From positions 6,752,001 to 6,816,000 of the forward strand of contig CAVUSO010000001.1 of the NCBI GenBank assembly GCA_963744145.1: a stretch of 64,000 bases of DNA, given 5' to 3'. Positions 2,292 to 39,180 of the stretch are shown piece after piece; position 1 is the first letter of the stretch; each line of letters starts with the position of its first letter. This stretch comes from an uncultured cyanobacterium. GTDB taxonomy: Bacteria > Cyanobacteriota > Cyanobacteriia > Cyanobacteriales > CAWUOF01. A model generated the notes under the pieces. That model worked only from the letters and a program-made list of their open reading frames with translations. It was not told the origin of the DNA and did no database searches. Made by a program: the position numbers and the translations under genes.

Positions 2292-2811
2292 ATGACTGGA
2301 TCGGCGAAAATTCAAAGTTTATACACTGATGGGGCTTGCTCAGGTAATCCCGGCCCAGGCGGATGGGGCGTGGTAATTTGTTATAGCGATCGCTCTATCC
2401 ATGAACTAGGTGGTCGTGATGGACAAACGACTAACAACCGGATGGAAATGCAAGCAGCGATCGCTGCTTTAAAGTTCCTGAGGGAATCTGGACAAAAAGA
2501 GCCAGTTACTCTCTACACTGATAGCGAATACCTCAAAAACGGTATTACCAAATGGATTCAAGGTTGGAAGAAAAAAAACTGGATCACATCAACCGGAAAA
2601 CCAGTACTGAAACCAAGACCTCTGGCAGCTACTTGATCAGATCAATAGTAAACAAATTAAATGGGAATATGTGCGCGGTCACTCGGGCGACCGATATAAT
2701 GATCGTTGTGATGCGATCGCGCGTGGTTTTGCCCAAAGTAAACCTCCAGCGCTCAAACAATTACCTACAAATAGTCCAATTGTTGCAGAGGTAACCGAAG
2801 TAGAAAGTTAA
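2292..2811 (+). CDS. rnhA: Ribonuclease HI, with +1 frameshift near 2610 (probable sequence error)
   Basis: [23 protein letters not shown] and YTDSEY motifs. Removing one A at 2610-2612 restores [12 protein letters not shown]...[14 protein letters not shown]. Confidence 0.9.
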
Positions 2812-2870
2812 ATAAAGGTATCATCTAAGTTTAATGTGCACGCTAACTTCCTCGCTGTAATTCGGCACTT

Positions 2871-3149
2871 ATGGACGTAACCGCTAATTATTCGGCTGAT
2901 GCTCAGGAAAACTTACCTCGGGAGGTAAGGGTTGCCCAACTTAGCAACCTGGTAGAAACCCTACGGATGGCTGATGAAATCGCGCAAAAACGTTATCTAA
3001 TTACCAGTTCAGAACTAGCAGACTTAATGGATATCAATGCTAGCGCTGTCACCAGTCGAGGTGATAATTGGGTGTGGCGAAATTGGATTGTATCCAGGGT
3101 ACGCAGAGAAGGTAATCAAATTCTCTGGCAATTAGAACGGGTAGACTGA
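2871..3149 (+). CDS. Conserved cyanobacterial hypothetical protein downstream of rnhA
   Basis: 92-aa ORF, ITSSELADLMDINASAVTSRG...WRNW motif, possible HTH. Confidence 0.7.
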   Translation: MDVTANYSADAQENLPREVRVAQLSNLVETLRMADEIAQKRYLITSSELADLMDINASAVTSRGDNWVWRNWIVSRVRREGNQILWQLERVD

Positions 3150-3165
3150 TTAGCACTAAACCTAA

Positions 3166-3347
3166 TTTAGTGGGATGAGAGTTCGAGGGATTCAGAACTT
3201 TTACCGGAAATCATCGATACAAATCGATTTCCGGAGCGACAATTCCCTAGACAGAATCCCCAATCTGGGGTTTAATGGGTAAATTGGCCAAATGCTGGCC
3301 GGGTCTAGGACAGATTTGGATTGCCAAATCGATAAAATCCCACTAAA
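3166..3347 (+). ncRNA. Candidate structured RNA or cis-regulatory leader, family not recognised
   Basis: 11-bp closing stem TTTAGTGGGAT/ATCCCACTAAA encloses six more helices. G-U pairs fit the + strand. Confidence 0.5.
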
Positions 3348-3444
3348 AACCTCTAATGACCGAGTACCCTAGTTAAATAGCAAATACATCCCACCAATCG
3401 CGTGAATGCAGACGAACCTCAACCTCAAAATTTGATTCGGCCTA

Positions 3445-4749
3445 TTGACGGCTGTGGCCATTGTTGTGGCCGACATGATCGGTACAGGTGTTTTTACCAG
3501 TTTGGGATTTCAAGCTGGGGACATTAAATCAGGTTTTGCTTTACTATTTTTATGGATAGTAGGTGGAATTCTGGCTGTCTGTGGTGCCCTTTCCTATGGA
3601 GAACTAGCAGCCGTAATGCCTAGATCCGGGGGCGAATATCATTATTTATCCAAAACTTTTCACCCAGCAATTGGCTTTTTGTCCGGCTGGATTTCCACGA
3701 CGGTTGGTTTTGCAGCACCGACAGCCGCAGCAGGAATGGCTTTTGGTCAATATTTTTCTCAAGTTTTCCCCCTACTTAATCCTCAAGCGATCGCGTTGGG
3801 GATAGTAATCACCATTGCGCTAATTCATCTCAAAGATTTAAAAATAGTAAGTTATTTTCAAAATATTTCGACAATTTTGAAAGTATCACTTATTGTGATT
3901 TTGATCGTTGCTGGACTTTTGGTTAGCCAACCCCAGACCATTAGCTTCCTACCAACTAGCGAGGATGGAGCGATAATTTTTAGCACTCCATTTGCGGTTT
4001 CTTTAGTATTTGTCATGTATGCTTATTCGGGTTGGAATGCTTCGATCTATATTGCCAATGAAATCAAAGACCCGGAAAAAAATATTCCACGTTCCTTATT
4101 AGCAGGCACCTTAATTGTGTTAGGGTTGTATTTGCTAACTAACTTTATTTTTCTTTATTCTACACCGATCGCCGACTTAGCTGCGGCCAAAGAAAAAGTA
4201 GCGGCGGTGGCTGCCCAAAATATTTTTGGGGAAATCGGTGGTAAGATCATCAGCTTGCTAATCTCAATTGGGTTAATATCAGCCATCAGTTCCATGACCT
4301 GGGCTGGTCCGCGGGTAACTCAAGTGATTGGTGAAGATATCCCATTTTTCAAGCTTTTAGCCCGAAAAAATGCAAAAGGAATTCCTTTCCTTGCGATCCT
4401 GCTCCAGTTAGGGATTGTAATTTTTCTAGTGATTACTTCTTCCTTTGAAACAGTTGTCACCTATCTAGGGTTTACCCTGACCTTGTCTTCTTTTATAACT
4501 GTTTTAGGTGTATTCGTACATAGATTTCGGTATCCCGATATGCCTCGACCCTATCAAACCTGGGGATATCCAGTCACACCGATCATCTTTTTGCTCATCA
4601 GTCTGTGGATGCTGATTTTTACTTTTCAAGGTAAACCAATGGAATCCTTAGCAGGATTAGGAACTATTTGTCTAGGATTACCTGTATATTTTATTGCTGC
4701 TAAAAATCAGTTAGTATCTTCAGAATCACAAATTTCCACAAAAGATTAA
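3445..4749 (+). CDS. APC-family amino acid permease (start uncertain)
   Basis: MIGTGVF, YGELAA..PRSGGEY and YAYSGWN motifs, about 12 TM segments. An in-frame ATG at 3406 is cut off by TGA at 3433-3435. Confidence 0.9.
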   Translation: MTAVAIVVADMIGTGVFTSLGFQAGDIKSGFALLFLWIVGGILAVCGALSYGELAAVMPRSGGEYHYLSKTFHPAIGFLSGWISTTVGFAAPTAAAGMAFGQYFSQVFPLLNPQAIALGIVITIALIHLKDLKIVSYFQNISTILKVSLIVILIVAGLLVSQPQTISFLPTSEDGAIIFSTPFAVSLVFVMYAYSGWNASIYIANEIKDPEKNIPRSLLAGTLIVLGLYLLTNFIFLYSTPIADLAAAKEKVAAVAAQNIFGEIGGKIISLLISIGLISAISSMTWAGPRVTQVIGEDIPFFKLLARKNAKGIPFLAILLQLGIVIFLVITSSFETVVTYLGFTLTLSSFITVLGVFVHRFRYPDMPRPYQTWGYPVTPIIFLLISLWMLIFTFQGKPMESLAGLGTICLGLPVYFIAAKNQLVSSESQISTKD

Positions 4750-4770: not shown

Positions 4771-5982
4771 ATGAATAGCAAGAAAATCCGCTCCGTTTTC
4801 GCTACAATATTACCGTTTTTGATTTTGATTCAGGCTTGTACAAATAAACCAGATCCTGTTGCTAATTCTCCTCAAGCTACTGGATCTCCAAAAGCTGATA
4901 AATCCACTAAACTACCAACCGGAGAAAAAACTCCTACTCCAACTGCTAATATTGACTCAGAAAAAGCCGCAAAGCTAACTAATGAAGCTAAGTTTCTTGC
5001 GGGTATAAAGGGAGATGAAAATGGGCAATTTGCAGCAAGTGAAAAAACCGCAGCTTGGAAAGATCATGCTAGCTATTTTGACGGTGCTTGGGACAAATTA
5101 AATAAACAACAAATAGCGAAAATAAAAAGCTGGTCAGACAAGGAATTAAAATCAATTAATGAATCACCTCAACCCATATTTTATCCCTTTAGTGGTCCAG
5201 ATTTTTTATATGGTTTTTCTTTTTTCCCAAAAGGAAGTAACTATATACTAGTTGGATTAGAACCGGTGGGAACTTTACCTGATCTCGATCAAAAATCTGA
5301 AAAGGTAATTGATCAGAAATTACAGGATATTGAAAAAGCATTGGGTGCAATTCTGCAATTAAGCTTTTTCCGAACTAATGATATGAAAGTGGATTTAGCG
5401 GATAAAGGTGTTGTCCCAATTTTATTTGTTTTTTTAGCCCGGACAGATAATAAAATCGTGGATCTGAATTATATCAGGCTGAAAAAAGATGGTACATGGG
5501 AAGTAGAAGGTAAGGATAAAAAAGATAGTCAAGGAGTAAAAATTGATTTCGTCTCCAAAGGAGATACTCAACCGCGATCGCTTTATTATTTCTCAGTGGA
5601 TTTATCTAATGATGGATTACAAAAAAATCCCGAATTTAATAAATTTGTGCAAAGTTTTGGGAAATCTACCACTTATCTGAAAGCTGCATCTTATTTGATG
5701 CACAATGAAGAATTTTCGACGATCCGCAATTTAATTACTTCGCAAAGTAGTACGGTTTTACAAGATGATTCGGGGATTCCCCTAAAAAACTTTGATCCGG
5801 CTAAATGGAATTTGGAATTTTACGGTAATTATACCCAACCGATCGCGCTATTTTCCAACAGATATCAAGATGACTTAAGGAGTAAATATAAAAGTGGAAA
5901 AGATATCAAACCTCTAGATTTTGGGATTGGTTATCAATATGAAGTCAATACATCGAATTTAATGTTAGCAACTTCTAAATAA
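4771..5982 (+). CDS. Uncharacterised putative lipoprotein
   Basis: Signal peptide with lipobox-like IQAC, P/T/K-rich linker, motifs FYPFSGPDFL, YLKAASYLMH, LQDDSGIP. Confidence 0.75.
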   Translation: MNSKKIRSVFATILPFLILIQACTNKPDPVANSPQATGSPKADKSTKLPTGEKTPTPTANIDSEKAAKLTNEAKFLAGIKGDENGQFAASEKTAAWKDHASYFDGAWDKLNKQQIAKIKSWSDKELKSINESPQPIFYPFSGPDFLYGFSFFPKGSNYILVGLEPVGTLPDLDQKSEKVIDQKLQDIEKALGAILQLSFFRTNDMKVDLADKGVVPILFVFLARTDNKIVDLNYIRLKKDGTWEVEGKDKKDSQGVKIDFVSKGDTQPRSLYYFSVDLSNDGLQKNPEFNKFVQSFGKSTTYLKAASYLMHNEEFSTIRNLITSQSSTVLQDDSGIPLKNFDPAKWNLEFYGNYTQPIALFSNRYQDDLRSKYKSGKDIKPLDFGIGYQYEVNTSNLMLATSK

Positions 5983-6413: not shown

Positions 6414-6485
<72 letters not shown>

Positions 6486-9503: not shown

Positions 9504-11591
9504 ATGCGTTACTGTTTTCATCCCCAGTGTGAAATGCCCCACCACCTTGATGGGACAGACTTTTGTCGGAGTTGTGGTACTAAACTCTTGCTCAAAGAGC
9601 GTTATCGAGCGATTAAACTACTGGGTGGGGGAGTTTTGGGTAGAACCTTTTTGGGTGTAGATGAAGACAAACCTTCTAAACCACTTTGTGTAATTAAGCA
9701 AATTTTTTTTCAACCCAATTTTAATTTTACTACAGAGCATCCTTTTCCAGCAAGCGAACAGCCTCAACCAGGATTGATAGAAAAGAACCATTACCACTCT
9801 GCTCAGGATCACCAAAACCTAGATTGGGAATTCTTTAATCACCTGACCATGAAGCTCGATGAACTAGGTCAACATCCTCAAATCCCCAATTTATTAGCAG
9901 CTTTTGGAGAAAATGGACATCAATATTTCGTCCAAGAATATATAGAAGGAAGAAATCTAGCGGAGGAATTAGGAGAAACTGGTGCTTTCACGGAAGTAAA
10001 AATTCGTCAGTTATTAAAAAGTTTACTACCTGTATTGCAGGTAATGCACGATCATCAGTTAATTCATCGGGATATAAAACCAGAAAATATCATTCGTCGT
10101 CGTTCCCATCAATCCCTGGTTAATAAAGGATATCTAGGGGATCTCAGTTTAGTGGATTTTGGTGCAGCGATATCAGTTGCCGATCGCTATTATAGTCTAA
10201 CCAACACAATCGTTGGTTCGGCTGAATATGCAGCTCCGGAACAGACTAAAGGACAAGCGGTGATTAGTAGCGATCTTTACAGTTTAGGGATCACTTGTAT
10301 CCATTTACTGACAGAACAGTCTCCTTTTACTCTCTTTGATCCTGAACAAGATTTATGGGTATGGCGATATTATTTAGATCAAGAACATAAGTGGAGATCG
10401 GGGAAAGCTCAAATTAGTGAGTCTTTAGCCAAAATCATTGATAAATTAATCGAAAAATCACCTAAAAAACGTTATCAATCTGCAACTGAGGTGATGAAAG
10501 ACCTAAATCATTGGATGATCTCTGCACCAGAGATTCCCCAAAAAACTAAATTAGCAGTAACCGCGCTAGGAGGAGCCGCGATCGCGATTTTCTTTGCTAC
10601 ACTTACTACCCATATCCAATATATTAATCCTATTCCCAAGACATCTTTTAATAGTCCAGAAATATATCTTTCCCAACCGAGTTCAACTGACTTGAGTTTT
10701 CCCCAGCACCAGCTCCAATTATGGCAAAATCTCACTGGAGTTAATGGTCCAGTTTGGTCTTTAGCAATTAGTCCAGATGGGAAAACTCTCGCGAGTGGTA
10801 GTTATAAAGATATTAAACTATGGCAATTAGGCAAAAATGAAACTAAAATGATTATTTCTGGACATACTGGTCCAGTTTGGTCGATCGCAATTAGTCCGAA
10901 TGGAAAACTGCTAGCTAGTGGGAGTGAAGATCACACAATCAAATTGTGGAATATCCAGAAAAGTCAATTATTAGCTACATTGAATGAACATTCAGCCGGA
11001 ATATTTGCGATCGCTTTTAGTCCTGATCATAATATTCTAGCTAGTGGGAGTGCGGATCAAACCATTAAACTTTGGAATGTCACGACCGGGGAATTAATTC
11101 GGACTTTGAGAGGTCACTCAGGTGAAGTTCAATCAGTAGCATTTAGTCCAGATGGCAAAATCTTAGCAAGTGGTAGCACTGATGGTACAGTAAAAGTGTG
11201 GAATTTGAGTAATGGTGAATTAATTCATACCTTAATTGGTCATACAGACGCAGTTTGGTCAGTTGCAATTAGTCCGGATGGGAAAACAATTGCGAGTGGG
11301 AGTTGGGATCATCAGATTAAGTTGTGGAATATTAATACAGGTAAACAGATTCAGACTCTGATTAGTCATACAGATAAAGTTCAATCAGTAACTTTTAGTC
11401 CAGATGGACATAGATTAGCTAGTGGTGATTTTGCTGGTACGATTAAACTTTGGGATTTAACGAACAATACCGCGATCGATAATATTAAAGCACATTCAGC
11501 TTTAGTACAGATGGTATTTAGTCAGGATGGTAAAGCGATCGCTAGTGGTAGTTTCGATCACACAATTAAAATCTGGAGAGTTTCTCCCTAG
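9504..11591 (+). CDS. Ser/Thr kinase with N-terminal 4-Cys motif, TM segment and 7 WD40 repeats
   Basis: HRDIKPEN, LVDFG, YAAPE; hydrophobic LAVTALGGAAIAIFFATL; GH..WD repeats. Confidence 0.93.
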   Translation: MRYCFHPQCEMPHHLDGTDFCRSCGTKLLLKERYRAIKLLGGGVLGRTFLGVDEDKPSKPLCVIKQIFFQPNFNFTTEHPFPASEQPQPGLIEKNHYHSAQDHQNLDWEFFNHLTMKLDELGQHPQIPNLLAAFGENGHQYFVQEYIEGRNLAEELGETGAFTEVKIRQLLKSLLPVLQVMHDHQLIHRDIKPENIIRRRSHQSLVNKGYLGDLSLVDFGAAISVADRYYSLTNTIVGSAEYAAPEQTKGQAVISSDLYSLGITCIHLLTEQSPFTLFDPEQDLWVWRYYLDQEHKWRSGKAQISESLAKIIDKLIEKSPKKRYQSATEVMKDLNHWMISAPEIPQKTKLAVTALGGAAIAIFFATLTTHIQYINPIPKTSFNSPEIYLSQPSSTDLSFPQHQLQLWQNLTGVNGPVWSLAISPDGKTLASGSYKDIKLWQLGKNETKMIISGHTGPVWSIAISPNGKLLASGSEDHTIKLWNIQKSQLLATLNEHSAGIFAIAFSPDHNILASGSADQTIKLWNVTTGELIRTLRGHSGEVQSVAFSPDGKILASGSTDGTVKVWNLSNGELIHTLIGHTDAVWSVAISPDGKTIASGSWDHQIKLWNINTGKQIQTLISHTDKVQSVTFSPDGHRLASGDFAGTIKLWDLTNNTAIDNIKAHSALVQMVFSQDGKAIASGSFDHTIKIWRVSP

Positions 11592-11673
11592 ATGCAAAAT
11601 TGAATTTTTCCCACCAGCAGTTTTTTCAGCTGATGGACTGATATTTATAGGAGTTTAACGGATCAGATTGAAA

Positions 11674-11796
11674 TAGACTTCTGGCAAAAGTCCTTATTGA
11701 GTAATTTATTGACAGGCAAGATGCCTGTCCCACAAGAGTTTTTTTGTTAGTGGGACAGGCATCTTGCCTGTCCTAGTTATTTTTGCAAGAAGTCTA
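11674..11796. mobile_element. MITE-like element: TAGACTTCT(G/T)GCAAAA ends around an inverted hairpin doublet
   Basis: 16-bp terminal inverted repeats with 1 mismatch; core GACAGGCAAGATGCCTGTCCCAC...GTGGGACAGGCATCTTGCCTGTC; partial copy at 30014-30110. Confidence 0.8.
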
Positions 11797-11808
11797 ATAT
11801 ATTAAATT

Positions 11809-12615
11809 TCAGTCTTCCTCAACTTCTATTCCAGCTTGACGCAATTTTGCCGCTAATCGCTCGGCTCGTTGACGTTCTTGTTCAGCCCGTTGACGTTCTT
11901 GTTCAGCCCGTTGACGTTCTTGTTCAGCTCGTTGACGTTCTTGTTCAGTGAATTCTTCTGACCATAATAACAATTCACCTGCCAGATTCCACCATCTCAA
12001 CCAATAGCCAGTTCTACCTTCATGGTATCCGTGCCAAACTCCTAAAAATAGGTCTAAACCTGGTATCCAATAACGTCCATTTTCATCAGGTTGTTTGATT
12101 TGGTAGTGTTCTCCTTCTAAGCTATAAACTTCTAAATAAGCTGTACTAGCTCGGAAAATCACATAAATCGGTACTTTCAGCACTTGCTCATAAAAAAACC
12201 ACTTTCCCACTCGTTGGGTAAATTCCACGGAATATTCCTCTCCATAAGTTGCGGAAAGAAATTCCATCACAATTTGGGGAATCGGTCCTTCTGTGTGGGG
12301 GGTGTAACTCCGACGCACTTCAGGGACATTTTGAGGTTTAACTGGTTTAACATAGAACCAGTCTGGTGCTTTACAGATTGTTCGTGGTTCCTCGTCTTCT
12401 GTTAATGGGAAACTAATTCCTGCACAGAGGGCTAGATTAGAAACTACTAAAGCATCTTGCATTAATTTGGGGATAGCAGCAAGAGCCTGTCGTAAAGCTG
12501 CAGCTAATAAGGGTTGGCTTTCGTCTTCTACGGGATCATCTGGTAGTTGAAAATCGGCTGGCAAAATCGGCCAGGTAATGATTAGTTCGGTCGAATTCGT
12601 TAATATAGCTGTCAT
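11809..12615 (-). CDS. Uma2 family putative endonuclease with EQERQRA coiled-coil repeats
   Basis: KAPDWFYV, VMEFLS, GKWFFYE, WLRWW; 21-bp tandem repeats at about 11860-11945. Confidence 0.9.
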   Translation of the reverse strand: MTAILTNSTELIITWPILPADFQLPDDPVEDESQPLLAAALRQALAAIPKLMQDALVVSNLALCAGISFPLTEDEEPRTICKAPDWFYVKPVKPQNVPEVRRSYTPHTEGPIPQIVMEFLSATYGEEYSVEFTQRVGKWFFYEQVLKVPIYVIFRASTAYLEVYSLEGEHYQIKQPDENGRYWIPGLDLFLGVWHGYHEGRTGYWLRWWNLAGELLLWSEEFTEQERQRAEQERQRAEQERQRAEQERQRAERLAAKLRQAGIEVEED

Positions 12616-12727
12616 AGATAATATATTATTTGGGTAAATCTAAATTTGCCAACACTTATTAAGCCCAATCCCTTGGCACAGATGAAGGGAAGAAGCTTAT
12701 AAGCCTAAATACTAGCGATCCTGGGTA

Positions 12728-12897
12728 ATAACAATTTAATGTGAAGTTGCACAAATCTAGATCCCCCTAAATCCCCCTTAAAAAGGGGGACTTTTAATTT
12801 TGGCTCCCCCTTAAAAAGGGGGACTTTTAATTCTGGCTCCCCCTTTTTAAGGGGGCTGGGGGGATCAATTCTATGCAGCTTCATCAAAAATTGGTAT
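12728..12897. mobile_element. MITE-like element: ATA(A/C)CAATT..TGAAG.TGCA ends with CCCCCTT-AAGGGGG palindrome cargo
   Basis: Imperfect TIRs ATAACAATTTAATGTGAAGTTGCA / TGCAGCTTCATCAAAAATTGGTAT; three internal palindromes. Confidence 0.75.
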
Positions 12898-13075
12898 AAA
12901 TTGTTGGCAGATCCGGTCTAAGATTATTACACAAAACTTGATTTCTTGTCAATCAGAGCTAGTTACTCTTCAATTTTAGTTACAAATACAACTAATTATC
13001 TCAGTTTACTTAAGTTTCTCATCGTCTTTCTAGGAAAGAATTAGGATATATTTAACTTCCTGAATCTTTTTCTGT

Positions 13076-28839: not shown

Positions 28840-30018
28840 ATGAATCTATTTTTGCGCCAAAATCCAGATGTGATCGTTCGTCCCCTGCAATATCGGGACT
28901 TAGAAATGCTGGAACGACTTCTTCACCAAGCACCAGAAACTTTAACAGAGCTGGAATTGGGCTCTCTAATTGCTCAAATTGCACAGATTCGTCGCTGGTA
29001 TGGGCCGCTAAAGTGCTTGAGTCTATTTCCTAACCCGTTACAATATCTATTTTGGATATATGTAGTCCAGGCAGATGGCCAAATTCGGGGCATGATCAAA
29101 ATCTCGCCCTTTAATCGGACTCGGAGCACCTGGAGAGTCGATGAAGTAGTAGTTGACCCACAAGAATCTAGTCATGGAATTGGGTCTCAACTCCTCCGTC
29201 ATTGCTTTGAAGCAATTTGGGAAGCTAGAACTTGGTTGTTAGAAGTTAATGTCAATGACAAAACTAAAATCGCAATTTATCGCCAAAATGGGTTTCAACC
29301 CTTAGCGAAAATGACTTATTGGGCGATCGCACCGGACAAAGTGAAGGAATTAGCCGATCGCGAGCCAGATTTACCAAATCTTTTACCTGTCAGCAACGCG
29401 GATGCTCATTTGCTTTATCAACTTGATACAGCTTCTATGCCCCCCTTAGTGCGTCAGGTATTCGATCGTCATATTCACGACTTCAAAACTACCTTTTTCG
29501 GGGCTTTAATTGAAGGGTTTAAACAATGGTTCAATCAAACTGAAGTAGTTAGTGGCTATGTGTTTGAACCCCAGCGGAAAGCGGCGATCGGACACTTTCA
29601 AATGCGTTTGTGTCGTCAAGATGCTTTAGTCGCTCATGCTAGTCTGACAGTTCATCCTGCTTATACCTGGCTATATCCAGAATTACTCTCGCAGATGGCC
29701 CGAATTGCCCAAGATTTCCCACCTCAATCCTTATATCTAGCTTCGGCTGATTATCAGCAAGAACGCGAAGAATATTTAGAGCAAATCGGAGCGATCAGAA
29801 TTGCCCACACCCTCTTGATGTCTCGTTCGGTCTGGCATAAAATCAGGGAATCGAGGCGAGTTGCTCTGGAAGGACTTCAGTTGTCTGATGTCTTTCAGGG
29901 ACTTCAACCAGCCCATAAACCAATCCCAGGAAGAATGTCCTGGAGCAGTTCACCGCCGGTCGAACTGGGGACAGGGGAATCCCCACCAGAAATTACTGAG
30001 GTAGAACCAAATGGGTAA
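28840..30018 (+). CDS. GNAT family N-acetyltransferase
   Basis: GIGSQLLR...LEVN...YRQNGF. Confidence 0.85.
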   Translation: MNLFLRQNPDVIVRPLQYRDLEMLERLLHQAPETLTELELGSLIAQIAQIRRWYGPLKCLSLFPNPLQYLFWIYVVQADGQIRGMIKISPFNRTRSTWRVDEVVVDPQESSHGIGSQLLRHCFEAIWEARTWLLEVNVNDKTKIAIYRQNGFQPLAKMTYWAIAPDKVKELADREPDLPNLLPVSNADAHLLYQLDTASMPPLVRQVFDRHIHDFKTTFFGALIEGFKQWFNQTEVVSGYVFEPQRKAAIGHFQMRLCRQDALVAHASLTVHPAYTWLYPELLSQMARIAQDFPPQSLYLASADYQQEREEYLEQIGAIRIAHTLLMSRSVWHKIRESRRVALEGLQLSDVFQGLQPAHKPIPGRMSWSSSPPVELGTGESPPEITEVEPNG

Positions 30019-30110
30019 TTTATGGACAGGCAAGATGCCTGTCCCACAAGAGTTTTTGGGGTTGTGGGACAGGCATCTTGCCTGTCCTAGTTATTTTTGC
30101 AAGAAGTCTA
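30014..30110. mobile_element. Partial copy of the 11674-11796 element (left end lost)
   Basis: Same hairpin doublet and right end TTTTGCAAGAAGTCTA; overlaps the GNAT stop codon. Confidence 0.8.
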
Positions 30111-30129
30111 TTGACATCAAGGGCAAAAA

Positions 30130-30591
30130 ATGGTGAAAATTTCCGCTTTAGGGTTAGATATAGGCTCGAAAAGGATTGGAGTGGCTGGTTGTGATGGCAC
30201 TGGTTTAATTGCCAGTGGTGTGACTACAATCGAACATAGATCCTTTGGGCAAACCGTAGCTCAATTAGAAAAAATTGTGCAAGAGCGTCAAGTCCAAGTT
30301 TTGGTAGTGGGATTACCCTATACCCTGACAGGTGAGATCGGCTCCCAAGCTCGAAAAGTCCAAAAATTTGCCAATTATCTGGCTCAAGCATTAAAATTAC
30401 CACTTGAGTATATAGATGAACGATTAACTTCCTTTCAAGCCCAGGAACTGATGAAAGCGGCCAAAATTTCTCCTTCACGTCATAAAGAGATGATTGACCG
30501 AAAAGCAGCAGCTTTGATTTTACAGCAGTGGTTAGATACCCGTCGAGAAATTAGGACAAAAGAGTCTCGTTCTGAGCCATTATGGCCCTAA
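30130..30591 (+). CDS. ruvX: RuvX/YqgF pre-16S rRNA nuclease
   Basis: LGLDIGSKRIGVA, VVGLP, DERLTS, IDRKAA. Confidence 0.95.
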   Translation: MVKISALGLDIGSKRIGVAGCDGTGLIASGVTTIEHRSFGQTVAQLEKIVQERQVQVLVVGLPYTLTGEIGSQARKVQKFANYLAQALKLPLEYIDERLTSFQAQELMKAAKISPSRHKEMIDRKAAALILQQWLDTRREIRTKESRSEPLWP

Positions 30592-38936: not shown

Positions 38937-39180
38937 TACCAATTCACGCGCTTAAGATACATTAATAAGATTGATCTGTGGGGGAGGGTGGGTTTTGATG
39001 ATTAGTAGGTAAGTCTCAAAAATATCGGTGAACCCACCCCTACAGAAATCCGCAAATTGAGGGTAAAATTGGTAGGGGCAGGTTCACCAATCAATTCTGT
39101 CACCAACAGATAACTATGATAAACCTGCCCATAGCTAACAGATCAATCTCAGATTAAGTGCAATTTCATGGGTTATTGCA
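38936..39180. mobile_element. MITE-like element, homolog of 21557-21801
   Basis: Colinear similarity over about 245 bp. Confidence 0.8.

Follow-up and report, generated by a model that had tools for sequence, protein, structure and literature searches.

The 194-nt fold that lies upstream of an APC-family permease gene in this uncultured cyanobacterium appears, on a modest balance of probability, to be a composite, in which the hairpins that mark the end of the preceding gene adjoin a conserved promoter and the conserved leader of a permease-lipoprotein cassette. It had originally been predicted that the region (positions 3154-3347 of the window, which is the whole 64,000-nt stretch of DNA that was analysed) forms a single RNA with switch and kissing-loop potential, acting as a riboswitch-like leader or non-coding RNA of the permease operon, an interpretation that, taken as a whole, is partly supported by the analysis presented here. 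In the organization that we favour, 3154-3234 would form the 3'-end structure of an RNase HI-associated gene, serving termination and/or 3'-end protection, and 3248-3276 would be a sigma-70-type promoter of the permease-lipoprotein operon from which transcription starts near 3283. The ensuing ~119-nt 5' leader (~3283-3401) would open with a 5'-terminal hairpin at 3284-3302 and would carry a series of blocks, CCGGG, GATT(T)GGATT, AAAATCCC, AGTTAAAT, GCAAA, ATCCC and CGCGTG, that are shared with orthologous operons. Control of the operon would then most likely be exerted by a protein or a small RNA that recognizes these blocks by sequence; control through a multi-helix fold that senses a metabolite is the less probable alternative.

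The building blocks of the original prediction are all present. Each of its helices, the competing CACTAAA and the loop complements (CAATCT/GGATTG and GGGATTC/GAATCCC) are located in the sequence where they had been placed. The closing helix, P1, reads as a perfect 11 bp duplex between TTTAGTGGGAT at 3166-3176 and ATCCCACTAAA at 3337-3347, and the other elements are as follows:

3154-3160, + strand: CACTAAA, a competitor of the 3' strand of P1
3177-3184 / 3195-3202, + strand: helix GAGAGTTC / GAACTTTT
3204-3212 / 3226-3234, + strand: helix CCGGAAATC / GATTTCCGG
3246-3252 / 3303-3309, + strand: helix CCTAGAC / GTCTAGG
3254-3260 / 3267-3273, + strand: helix GAATCCC / GGGGTTT
3284-3290 / 3296-3302, + strand: helix TTGGCCA / TGGCCGG
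3313-3319 / 3324-3330, + strand: helix GATTTGG / CCAAATC

The cassette that the predicted leader would serve comprises two genes:

3402-4749, + strand: APC-family permease gene (Pfam AA_permease_2, 4.4e-59)
4771-5982, + strand: the partner of the permease, a 403-aa predicted lipoprotein whose translation reads as a signal peptide ending in Cys

The permease matched no NCBIfam model at cut-off. Its N-terminal peptide, VNADEPQPQNLI, matches the VNSNQNQDKPLI of the orthologues, which places the start of the gene at GTG 3402. A one-base change of frame occurs near 3436-3444, ahead of the listed ORF at TTG 3445: the match to the orthologues follows one frame as far as ~3438 and the next from ~3439, a change that reflects either a late start at TTG 3445, a damaged gene or an assembly indel. 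The 403-aa predicted lipoprotein matched neither a Pfam nor an NCBIfam family, and its neighbours in the ESM Atlas are annotated only as 'hypothetical protein'. In most of the loci examined by tblastn this protein is encoded just downstream of the permease, and the pair extends from cyanobacteria to Verrucomicrobiota, Alphaproteobacteria and Acidobacteriota. A cassette of a permease and an uncharacterized lipoprotein that is found across several phyla is of value in its own right.

The candidate promoter of the cassette consists of two hexamers, each of which falls within a strand of a helix of the proposed RNA:

3248-3253, + strand: -35-like hexamer TAGACA, within strand CCTAGAC
3271-3276, + strand: -10-like hexamer TTTAAT, 17 nt past the -35-like box and within strand GGGGTTT

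With the threshold set at E 1e-60, 29 of the 201 genomes were seen to contain an orthologue of the permease, and more were obtained from named genomes. When 32 permease upstream regions were searched with the pattern T[ACG]GACA, 16-18 nt, T[AT][AT]A[AT]T, a promoter-like pair was found in 13; the background frequency of the pattern is 0.019 per kb per strand. These 13 regions represent ~10 distinct sequence groups drawn from four families (f1, f13, f19 and f38), and in every one of them the end of the pair lies 125-146 nt upstream of the start codon. It is precisely at the -35-like box that the lineages start to resemble one another. Thus, hexamers 16-18 nt apart at a fixed position, as a sigma-70-type promoter demands, are present at this locus and, in the distance to the start codon and in conservation that sets in with the first hexamer, the arrangement resembles a sigma-70-type promoter followed by a long 5' leader. 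It differs from the canonical form in having T for A at position 2 of the -10 box, and the leader of ~119-135 nt contains conserved blocks. It should be emphasized that a consensus promoter scan of 2600-3700, in which the -10 rule was stricter, listed no site, because TTTAAT has T in place of the consensus A at position 2; the assignment of the promoter thus rests on conservation. The transcription start is predicted near 3283, inside the proposed structure, and the coincidence of two of its strands with a position-locked -35/-10-like pair is difficult to reconcile with a single RNA that spans 3166-3347.

Downstream of the candidate promoter the following elements were recognized:

3284-3302, + strand: hairpin H1, TTGGCCA / TGGCCGG, from the fold
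3299-3303, + strand: CCGGG, which in the alignment is a remnant of the orthologues' block AACCATCCGGG
3313-3330, + strand: hairpin H2, GATTTGG / CCAAATC, with the orthologue counterpart GATTG...CAATC
3334-3341, + strand: conserved block AAAATCCC, which overlaps the 3' arm of P1 (3337-3347)
3371-3407, + strand: proximal blocks AGTTAAAT, GCAAA, ATCCCAC and CGCGTGAAT, from the orthologue alignment

BLAST among the orthologous upstream regions revealed two conserved islands in family f19, and the upstream region of the genome studied here, when compared with the orthologues, gave no match at E 1e-3. What identifies its leader as homologous is thus a set of short blocks whose order and spacing are conserved. 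By eye, and with the use of anchors, the order of the blocks in this genome and in the orthologues is CTAGACAG, GGGTTTAAT (for GAGTTTAAT), CCGGG, GATTTGGATT, AAAATCCC, AGTTAAAT, GCAAA, ATCCC and CGCGTGAAT, and the same order is retained across 17 aligned leaders, that of this genome included. The first two of these blocks, CTAGACAG and GGGTTTAAT for GAGTTTAAT, behave as the promoter. All 11 core sequences share the full AACCATCCGGG block unchanged, and in the core group the island that runs from AACCATCCGGG to the start codon displays 78% mean column identity; at its end, block CGCGTGAAT contains the likely start codon, GTG 3402-3404. The suggestion of a leader for the permease operon thus gains support for 3246-3347, and indeed on to 3402, a segment conserved upstream of orthologous permease genes in four cyanobacterial families, and gains none for 3154-3245, which has no homologue. 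Two other explanations of the conserved blocks were rejected. A leader peptide is not consistent with the lack of a conserved upstream ORF, the ATG of ATATGAGTTT being absent from this genome and from the L043 group, and an N-terminal extension of the permease is not consistent with upstream frames that differ as protein among the orthologues.

A stricter leader pattern matched 54 of 401 genomes, and leader-type sequences (10 genomes by manual count of the table) occurred only at the permease locus of family f19. All 30 of the other pattern loci that were fetched proved to be unrelated to the leader, and a second match in genome G202 falls within the coding sequence of a WD40-repeat gene, on the opposite strand. 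A metagenome scan with the leader pattern returned 103 stretches, and one of the 80 loci obtained from it was kept as a true leader, with the sequence of L064; the remaining matches are read as chance, mostly in coding DNA, and no new leader diversity was gained. Among titles and abstract openings, a published account of the permease leader was not found. A position-locked candidate promoter with a conserved leader of ~120-135 nt that is absent from Rfam and is shared by four cyanobacterial families is also of value, and the identity of a factor that binds the leader blocks could hint at the cargo of the permease-lipoprotein pair.

At the permease loci of the Rivularia/Calothrix group (L071, L073-L075, L077, L079, L083 and L084) a different conserved upstream region was observed, in which TATAAAT... 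and CATCGGCATTTTTCAGGATGC... lie ~60-200 nt upstream of the permease start. The upstream regions of L071 and L083 contain a GTA-N8-TAC box, which fits the consensus of an NtcA site and hints at nitrogen control of the permease cassette in the Rivularia/Calothrix clade.

It could be argued that the conserved segment 3246-3402 is, by itself, a transcribed cis-regulatory RNA whose start lies upstream of 3246, such that the -35 and -10 boxes would be RNA elements and AAUCC(C) would alternate between GGAUU and GGGG(A) through a ligand or a protein. The strong conservation of blocks that have no coding potential is consistent with such a view, as is the complementarity of AAUCC, in our own reading of the orthologue sequences, to both the upstream GGAUU and the downstream GGGGAU. 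Furthermore, in the core alignment (A3, 11 sequences), H2 (GATTG/CAATC) pairs in 90% of cells and H3 (CCCC/GGGG) in 95%, compared with 13-64% for the slid partners that served as controls, and a long-range helix between the CCGGG block and the start-codon region pairs in 96.7%. The G-U changes in H2 occur on one side only, a feature that suits a stem in a + strand RNA and thus counts against the composite organization. It should be stressed, however, that the structures under test were derived from the same sequences, and the paired percentages are therefore inflated. The expected covariation did not emerge, as no compensatory change was evident among the 15 pairs tested, a comparison in which ~10 distinct sequences afford low power. 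The leaders also lack excess stability, contrary to the structured leader that had been proposed: RNAalifold identified 0 consensus pairs in 17 leaders, and 15 predicted leaders folded no better than shuffles, with a mean z of -0.19. By way of comparison, 13 control orthologous upstream regions without the motif gave a mean z of -0.44, and the predicted leader of this genome (3283-3410) gave a z of -0.78. In addition, the C-run of AAAATCCC, which pairs with a downstream GGGG in most orthologues to form H3, has no such partner in this genome, and conservation ends sharply at the -35-like box with no conserved promoter further upstream. A transcribed RNA that starts before 3246 therefore seems unlikely. 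An anti-start helix between CCGGG and the start-codon region, a candidate from RNAalifold, was also rejected, its duplex energy being no better than that of shuffles in 14 of 15 leaders.

The individual helices of the 3' half of the proposed RNA fare similarly. The helix CCTAGAC/GTCTAGG, which had been predicted to enclose two others, is 7 bp in this genome (P 0.019 against shuffles), and its counterpart in 12 orthologues is 2-5 bp (P 0.15-1.0), in no case above shuffles, so that it stands in this genome alone. H1 would occupy the extreme 5' end of the predicted mRNA, and in the orthologues the same interval holds a hairpin of unrelated sequence whose length for the most part does not exceed chance. 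In six leaders the stability of H1 ranges from z -0.4 to -2.1. Indeed, when the orthologues are considered interval by interval, most hairpins are of chance length, the exceptions being an 8-bp H2 (L041) and a 9-bp H1 (L043/L044). The leader thus resembles riboswitches and other cis-leaders of Rfam, such as the cyanobacterial glutamine (glnA) riboswitch, in being conserved non-coding sequence upstream of a transporter gene, and differs from them in the lack of a match in Rfam 15, of a consensus fold, of excess stability and of covariation. That the ~100 nt from the AACCATCCGGG block to the start codon represent a new cis-regulatory RNA, which would control the permease-lipoprotein cassette by binding a ligand, a small RNA or a protein, is a tentative proposal that we regard as doubtful.

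The absence of a known RNA family extends to the whole of the proposed structure. Against Rfam 15, where membership is defined by a score at or above the gathering threshold of the family, the 64-kb window gave a tRNA at 6414-6485 as its sole match, with none over the proposed RNA, and a sensitive scan of 2800-3500 returned only RgsA, on the - strand, at 18.1 bits compared with a gathering threshold of 88.4. The 13 orthologous loci gave 0 matches. In this respect the original prediction, which had recognized no match to several named riboswitches, 6S or SRP, is in accord with the database, both for this genome and for the 13 orthologous loci.

The 5' half of the proposed structure belongs, we suggest, to the gene upstream. 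The relevant features are:

2292-2808 (frames 2292-2609 then 2611-2808), + strand: RNase HI domain of the upstream gene (Pfam RNase_H, 7.2e-30)
2871-3149 (stop codon 3147-3149), + strand: 92-aa ORF, a conserved domain recognized from the sequence of relatives
3154-3172, + strand: gene-end hairpin 1, CACTAAA / TTTAGTG, 7 bp, in the fold of 3150-3245
3177-3202, + strand: gene-end hairpin 2, GAGAGTTC / GAACTTTT, from the fold; one genomic copy
3204-3234, + strand: gene-end hairpin 3, CCGGAAATC...GATTTCCGG, ~12 bp, from the fold; one genomic copy per strand

A tblastn search with the 284-aa RNase HI of L004, a protein named ribonuclease HI by NCBIfam, located a frame switch at an A-run near 2609-2611, such that residues 1-106 end at 2609 and residues 107-172 are encoded from 2611 onwards in the following frame. 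This first break resembles a homopolymer indel, attributable either to the assembly or to a genuine frameshift. The second break, at the stop near 2808, may be a natural split, since many relatives carry the domain that follows as a stand-alone ORF of ~93-131 aa. That 92-aa domain, which has no Pfam or NCBIfam family, is present at 70-85% identity in 198 of the 201 genomes of the order. In many relatives it is fused to RNase HI as the C-terminal part, as in the 284-aa protein of L004, and in others it stands alone; the open frame that contains it is ~290-320 aa in many genomes and ~93-131 aa in others. In the relatives seen, the RNase HI gene and the permease are on different contigs, and their adjacency here is specific to this lineage.

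The first of the gene-end hairpins begins 5 nt past the stop codon, and its 3' arm doubles as the start of P1; the second contains two G-U pairs on the + strand. Together, 3150-3245 folds as three consecutive hairpins with z scores of -3.91 (+ strand) and -2.27 (- strand). A DNA search of 61 genomes with the whole region matched two, namely this genome itself and one other through a 29-nt match (E 0.0013), and BLAST of the upstream regions revealed no homologue of 3154-3245 upstream of any orthologous permease. Over the 96 nt that follow the stop of the homologous gene, 30 loci (this genome included), whose post-stop sequences are mutually unrelated, gave a mean z of -2.31, with 14 of the 30 below -2. 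A strongly folding gene end is thus the rule for this gene, and its recurrence in unrelated sequences argues for selection on the structure of the gene end. On the + strand, a terminator scan of 2600-3700 identified no stem-loop with a T-run, its two sites both being on the - strand, and we therefore refer to these elements as gene-end hairpins and not as canonical intrinsic terminators. In lying 5 nt past the stop on the coding strand, and in the strongly folding, non-homologous sequence that also follows the homologous gene of relatives, they are similar to known gene-end stem-loops, whether intrinsic terminators or 3'-stabilizing hairpins. In contrast with intrinsic terminators, there is no G+C-rich stem with a T-run on the + strand, and three hairpins occur in a row where a terminator has one.

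Short perfect palindromes in intergenic DNA are also typical of REP/RAYT hairpin repeats and of cyanobacterial MITEs. The genome measures 7.7 Mb, with 39% G+C and 7852 copies of GCGATCGC. A search of the genome with the region returned one match only, the region itself, and blastn-short identified no match longer than 17 nt elsewhere. The hairpin arm pairs each occur 1-5 times in the 7.7 Mb. The hairpins are thus unique or nearly so and display no multi-copy similarity, which rules out a MITE or REP-type repeat and agrees with the view of the region as single-copy DNA. It could also be argued that the richness in hairpins is a neutral, genome-specific by-product, such that the stems have no role in this genome and only the promoter matters. 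That other intergenic places in the window fold better, and that the two strands of the region fold alike (see below), would fit this explanation. It accounts less well for hairpins that are not copies of a repeat, as the arm-pair counts and the 17-nt limit demonstrate, and for strong post-stop folding that recurs in relatives with unrelated sequences. Neutrality of the hairpins is, in our assessment, distinctly unlikely.

The fold as a whole is real and unusual, without being unique in the 64-kb window. RNAfold recovered the complete nested fold for the + strand of 3150-3360 at -70.1 kcal/mol (z -4.88), and none of 200 dinucleotide shuffles was equally stable. The - strand nearly matches this value (-69.3, z -4.25). 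As both strands fold alike, the signal is largely one of palindromy at the level of the DNA, and the six G-U pairs in the fold favour the + strand only slightly. In a sliding scan restricted to the + strand (1276 segments of 200 nt in 64 kb), 3151-3350 ranked 9th by GC-adjusted energy with a z of -3.1, and four other places in the window outrank it. By an estimate from base composition, 64 kb should contain about 5 inverted repeats of 11 bp whose arms lie within 200 nt, and P1 alone is therefore unremarkable; its 11-mer occurs in 12 genomic copies with unrelated flanks. Each of the four intervals of this genome that were tested contains a 7-bp helix (P ~0.05-0.07). The 7-mer GTGGGAT/ATCCCAC is ~1.8x over-represented in the genome. 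AATCCC/GGGATT is over-represented 2.4x, which makes complements of this kind easier to meet. The pairings that join the pieces over a distance (P1, CCTAGAC/GTCTAGG and the loop-loop complements) occur in this genome alone, and coincidence is their best explanation. It should be emphasized that the composite organization accounts for the excess of palindromes, that is the z of -4.88 and the 7-bp helix in each interval, only as coincidence.

Thus, although all of its helices exist within a fold of unusual stability (z -4.88), its G-U pairs suit the + strand, it is single-copy with no Rfam match, and the upstream gene is co-oriented so that read-through transcripts could span the region, one ~180-nt RNA of seven helices (3166-3347), closed by P1 and endowed with a CACTAAA switch and kissing loops in the manner of a riboswitch, is highly improbable, since its 5' half, for which neither 60 relatives nor the upstream regions of orthologous permeases yielded a homologue, resembles the end hairpins of the preceding gene, the relatives seen do not have the permease beside the RNase HI gene, the enclosing helix is lost in 12 orthologues, two strands are the conserved -35/-10-like pair and the - strand folds almost equally well. 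The composite organization, if true, would be an ordinary finding, and would serve as a warning against joining adjacent palindromes into one RNA.

GTGGGAT at 3170-3176 has two complements in direct orientation, the ATCCCAC copies at 3337-3343 and 3388-3394, the second of which lies 8 nt upstream of the likely start codon. As part of the doubtful cis-regulatory RNA proposal, transcripts of the upstream gene that read through could thus hide the start of the permease by pairing of GUGGGAU (3170-3176) with AUCCCAC (3388-3394).

Other strong folds were apparent elsewhere in the window. Between the converging genes 9504-11591 (+) and 11809-12615 (-), a long near-perfect palindrome, GACAGGCAAGATGCCTGTCCCAC ... 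GTGGGACAGGCATCTTGCCTGTC, occupies 11700-11790; the surrounding 11590-11870 gives a z of -8.9, and the palindrome probably represents either a terminator that acts in both directions or an element of REP type. At 12760-12870 an intergenic gap contains three tandem hairpin units, each of CCCCCTTAAAAAGGGGG plus a spacer, within a segment (12680-12920) that gives a z of -6.8, and the tandem unit probably represents a small repeat family. In the sliding scan, 29901-30200 and 38951-39150 also folded above the expectation from G+C content, with z scores of -5.1 and -3.4, respectively.
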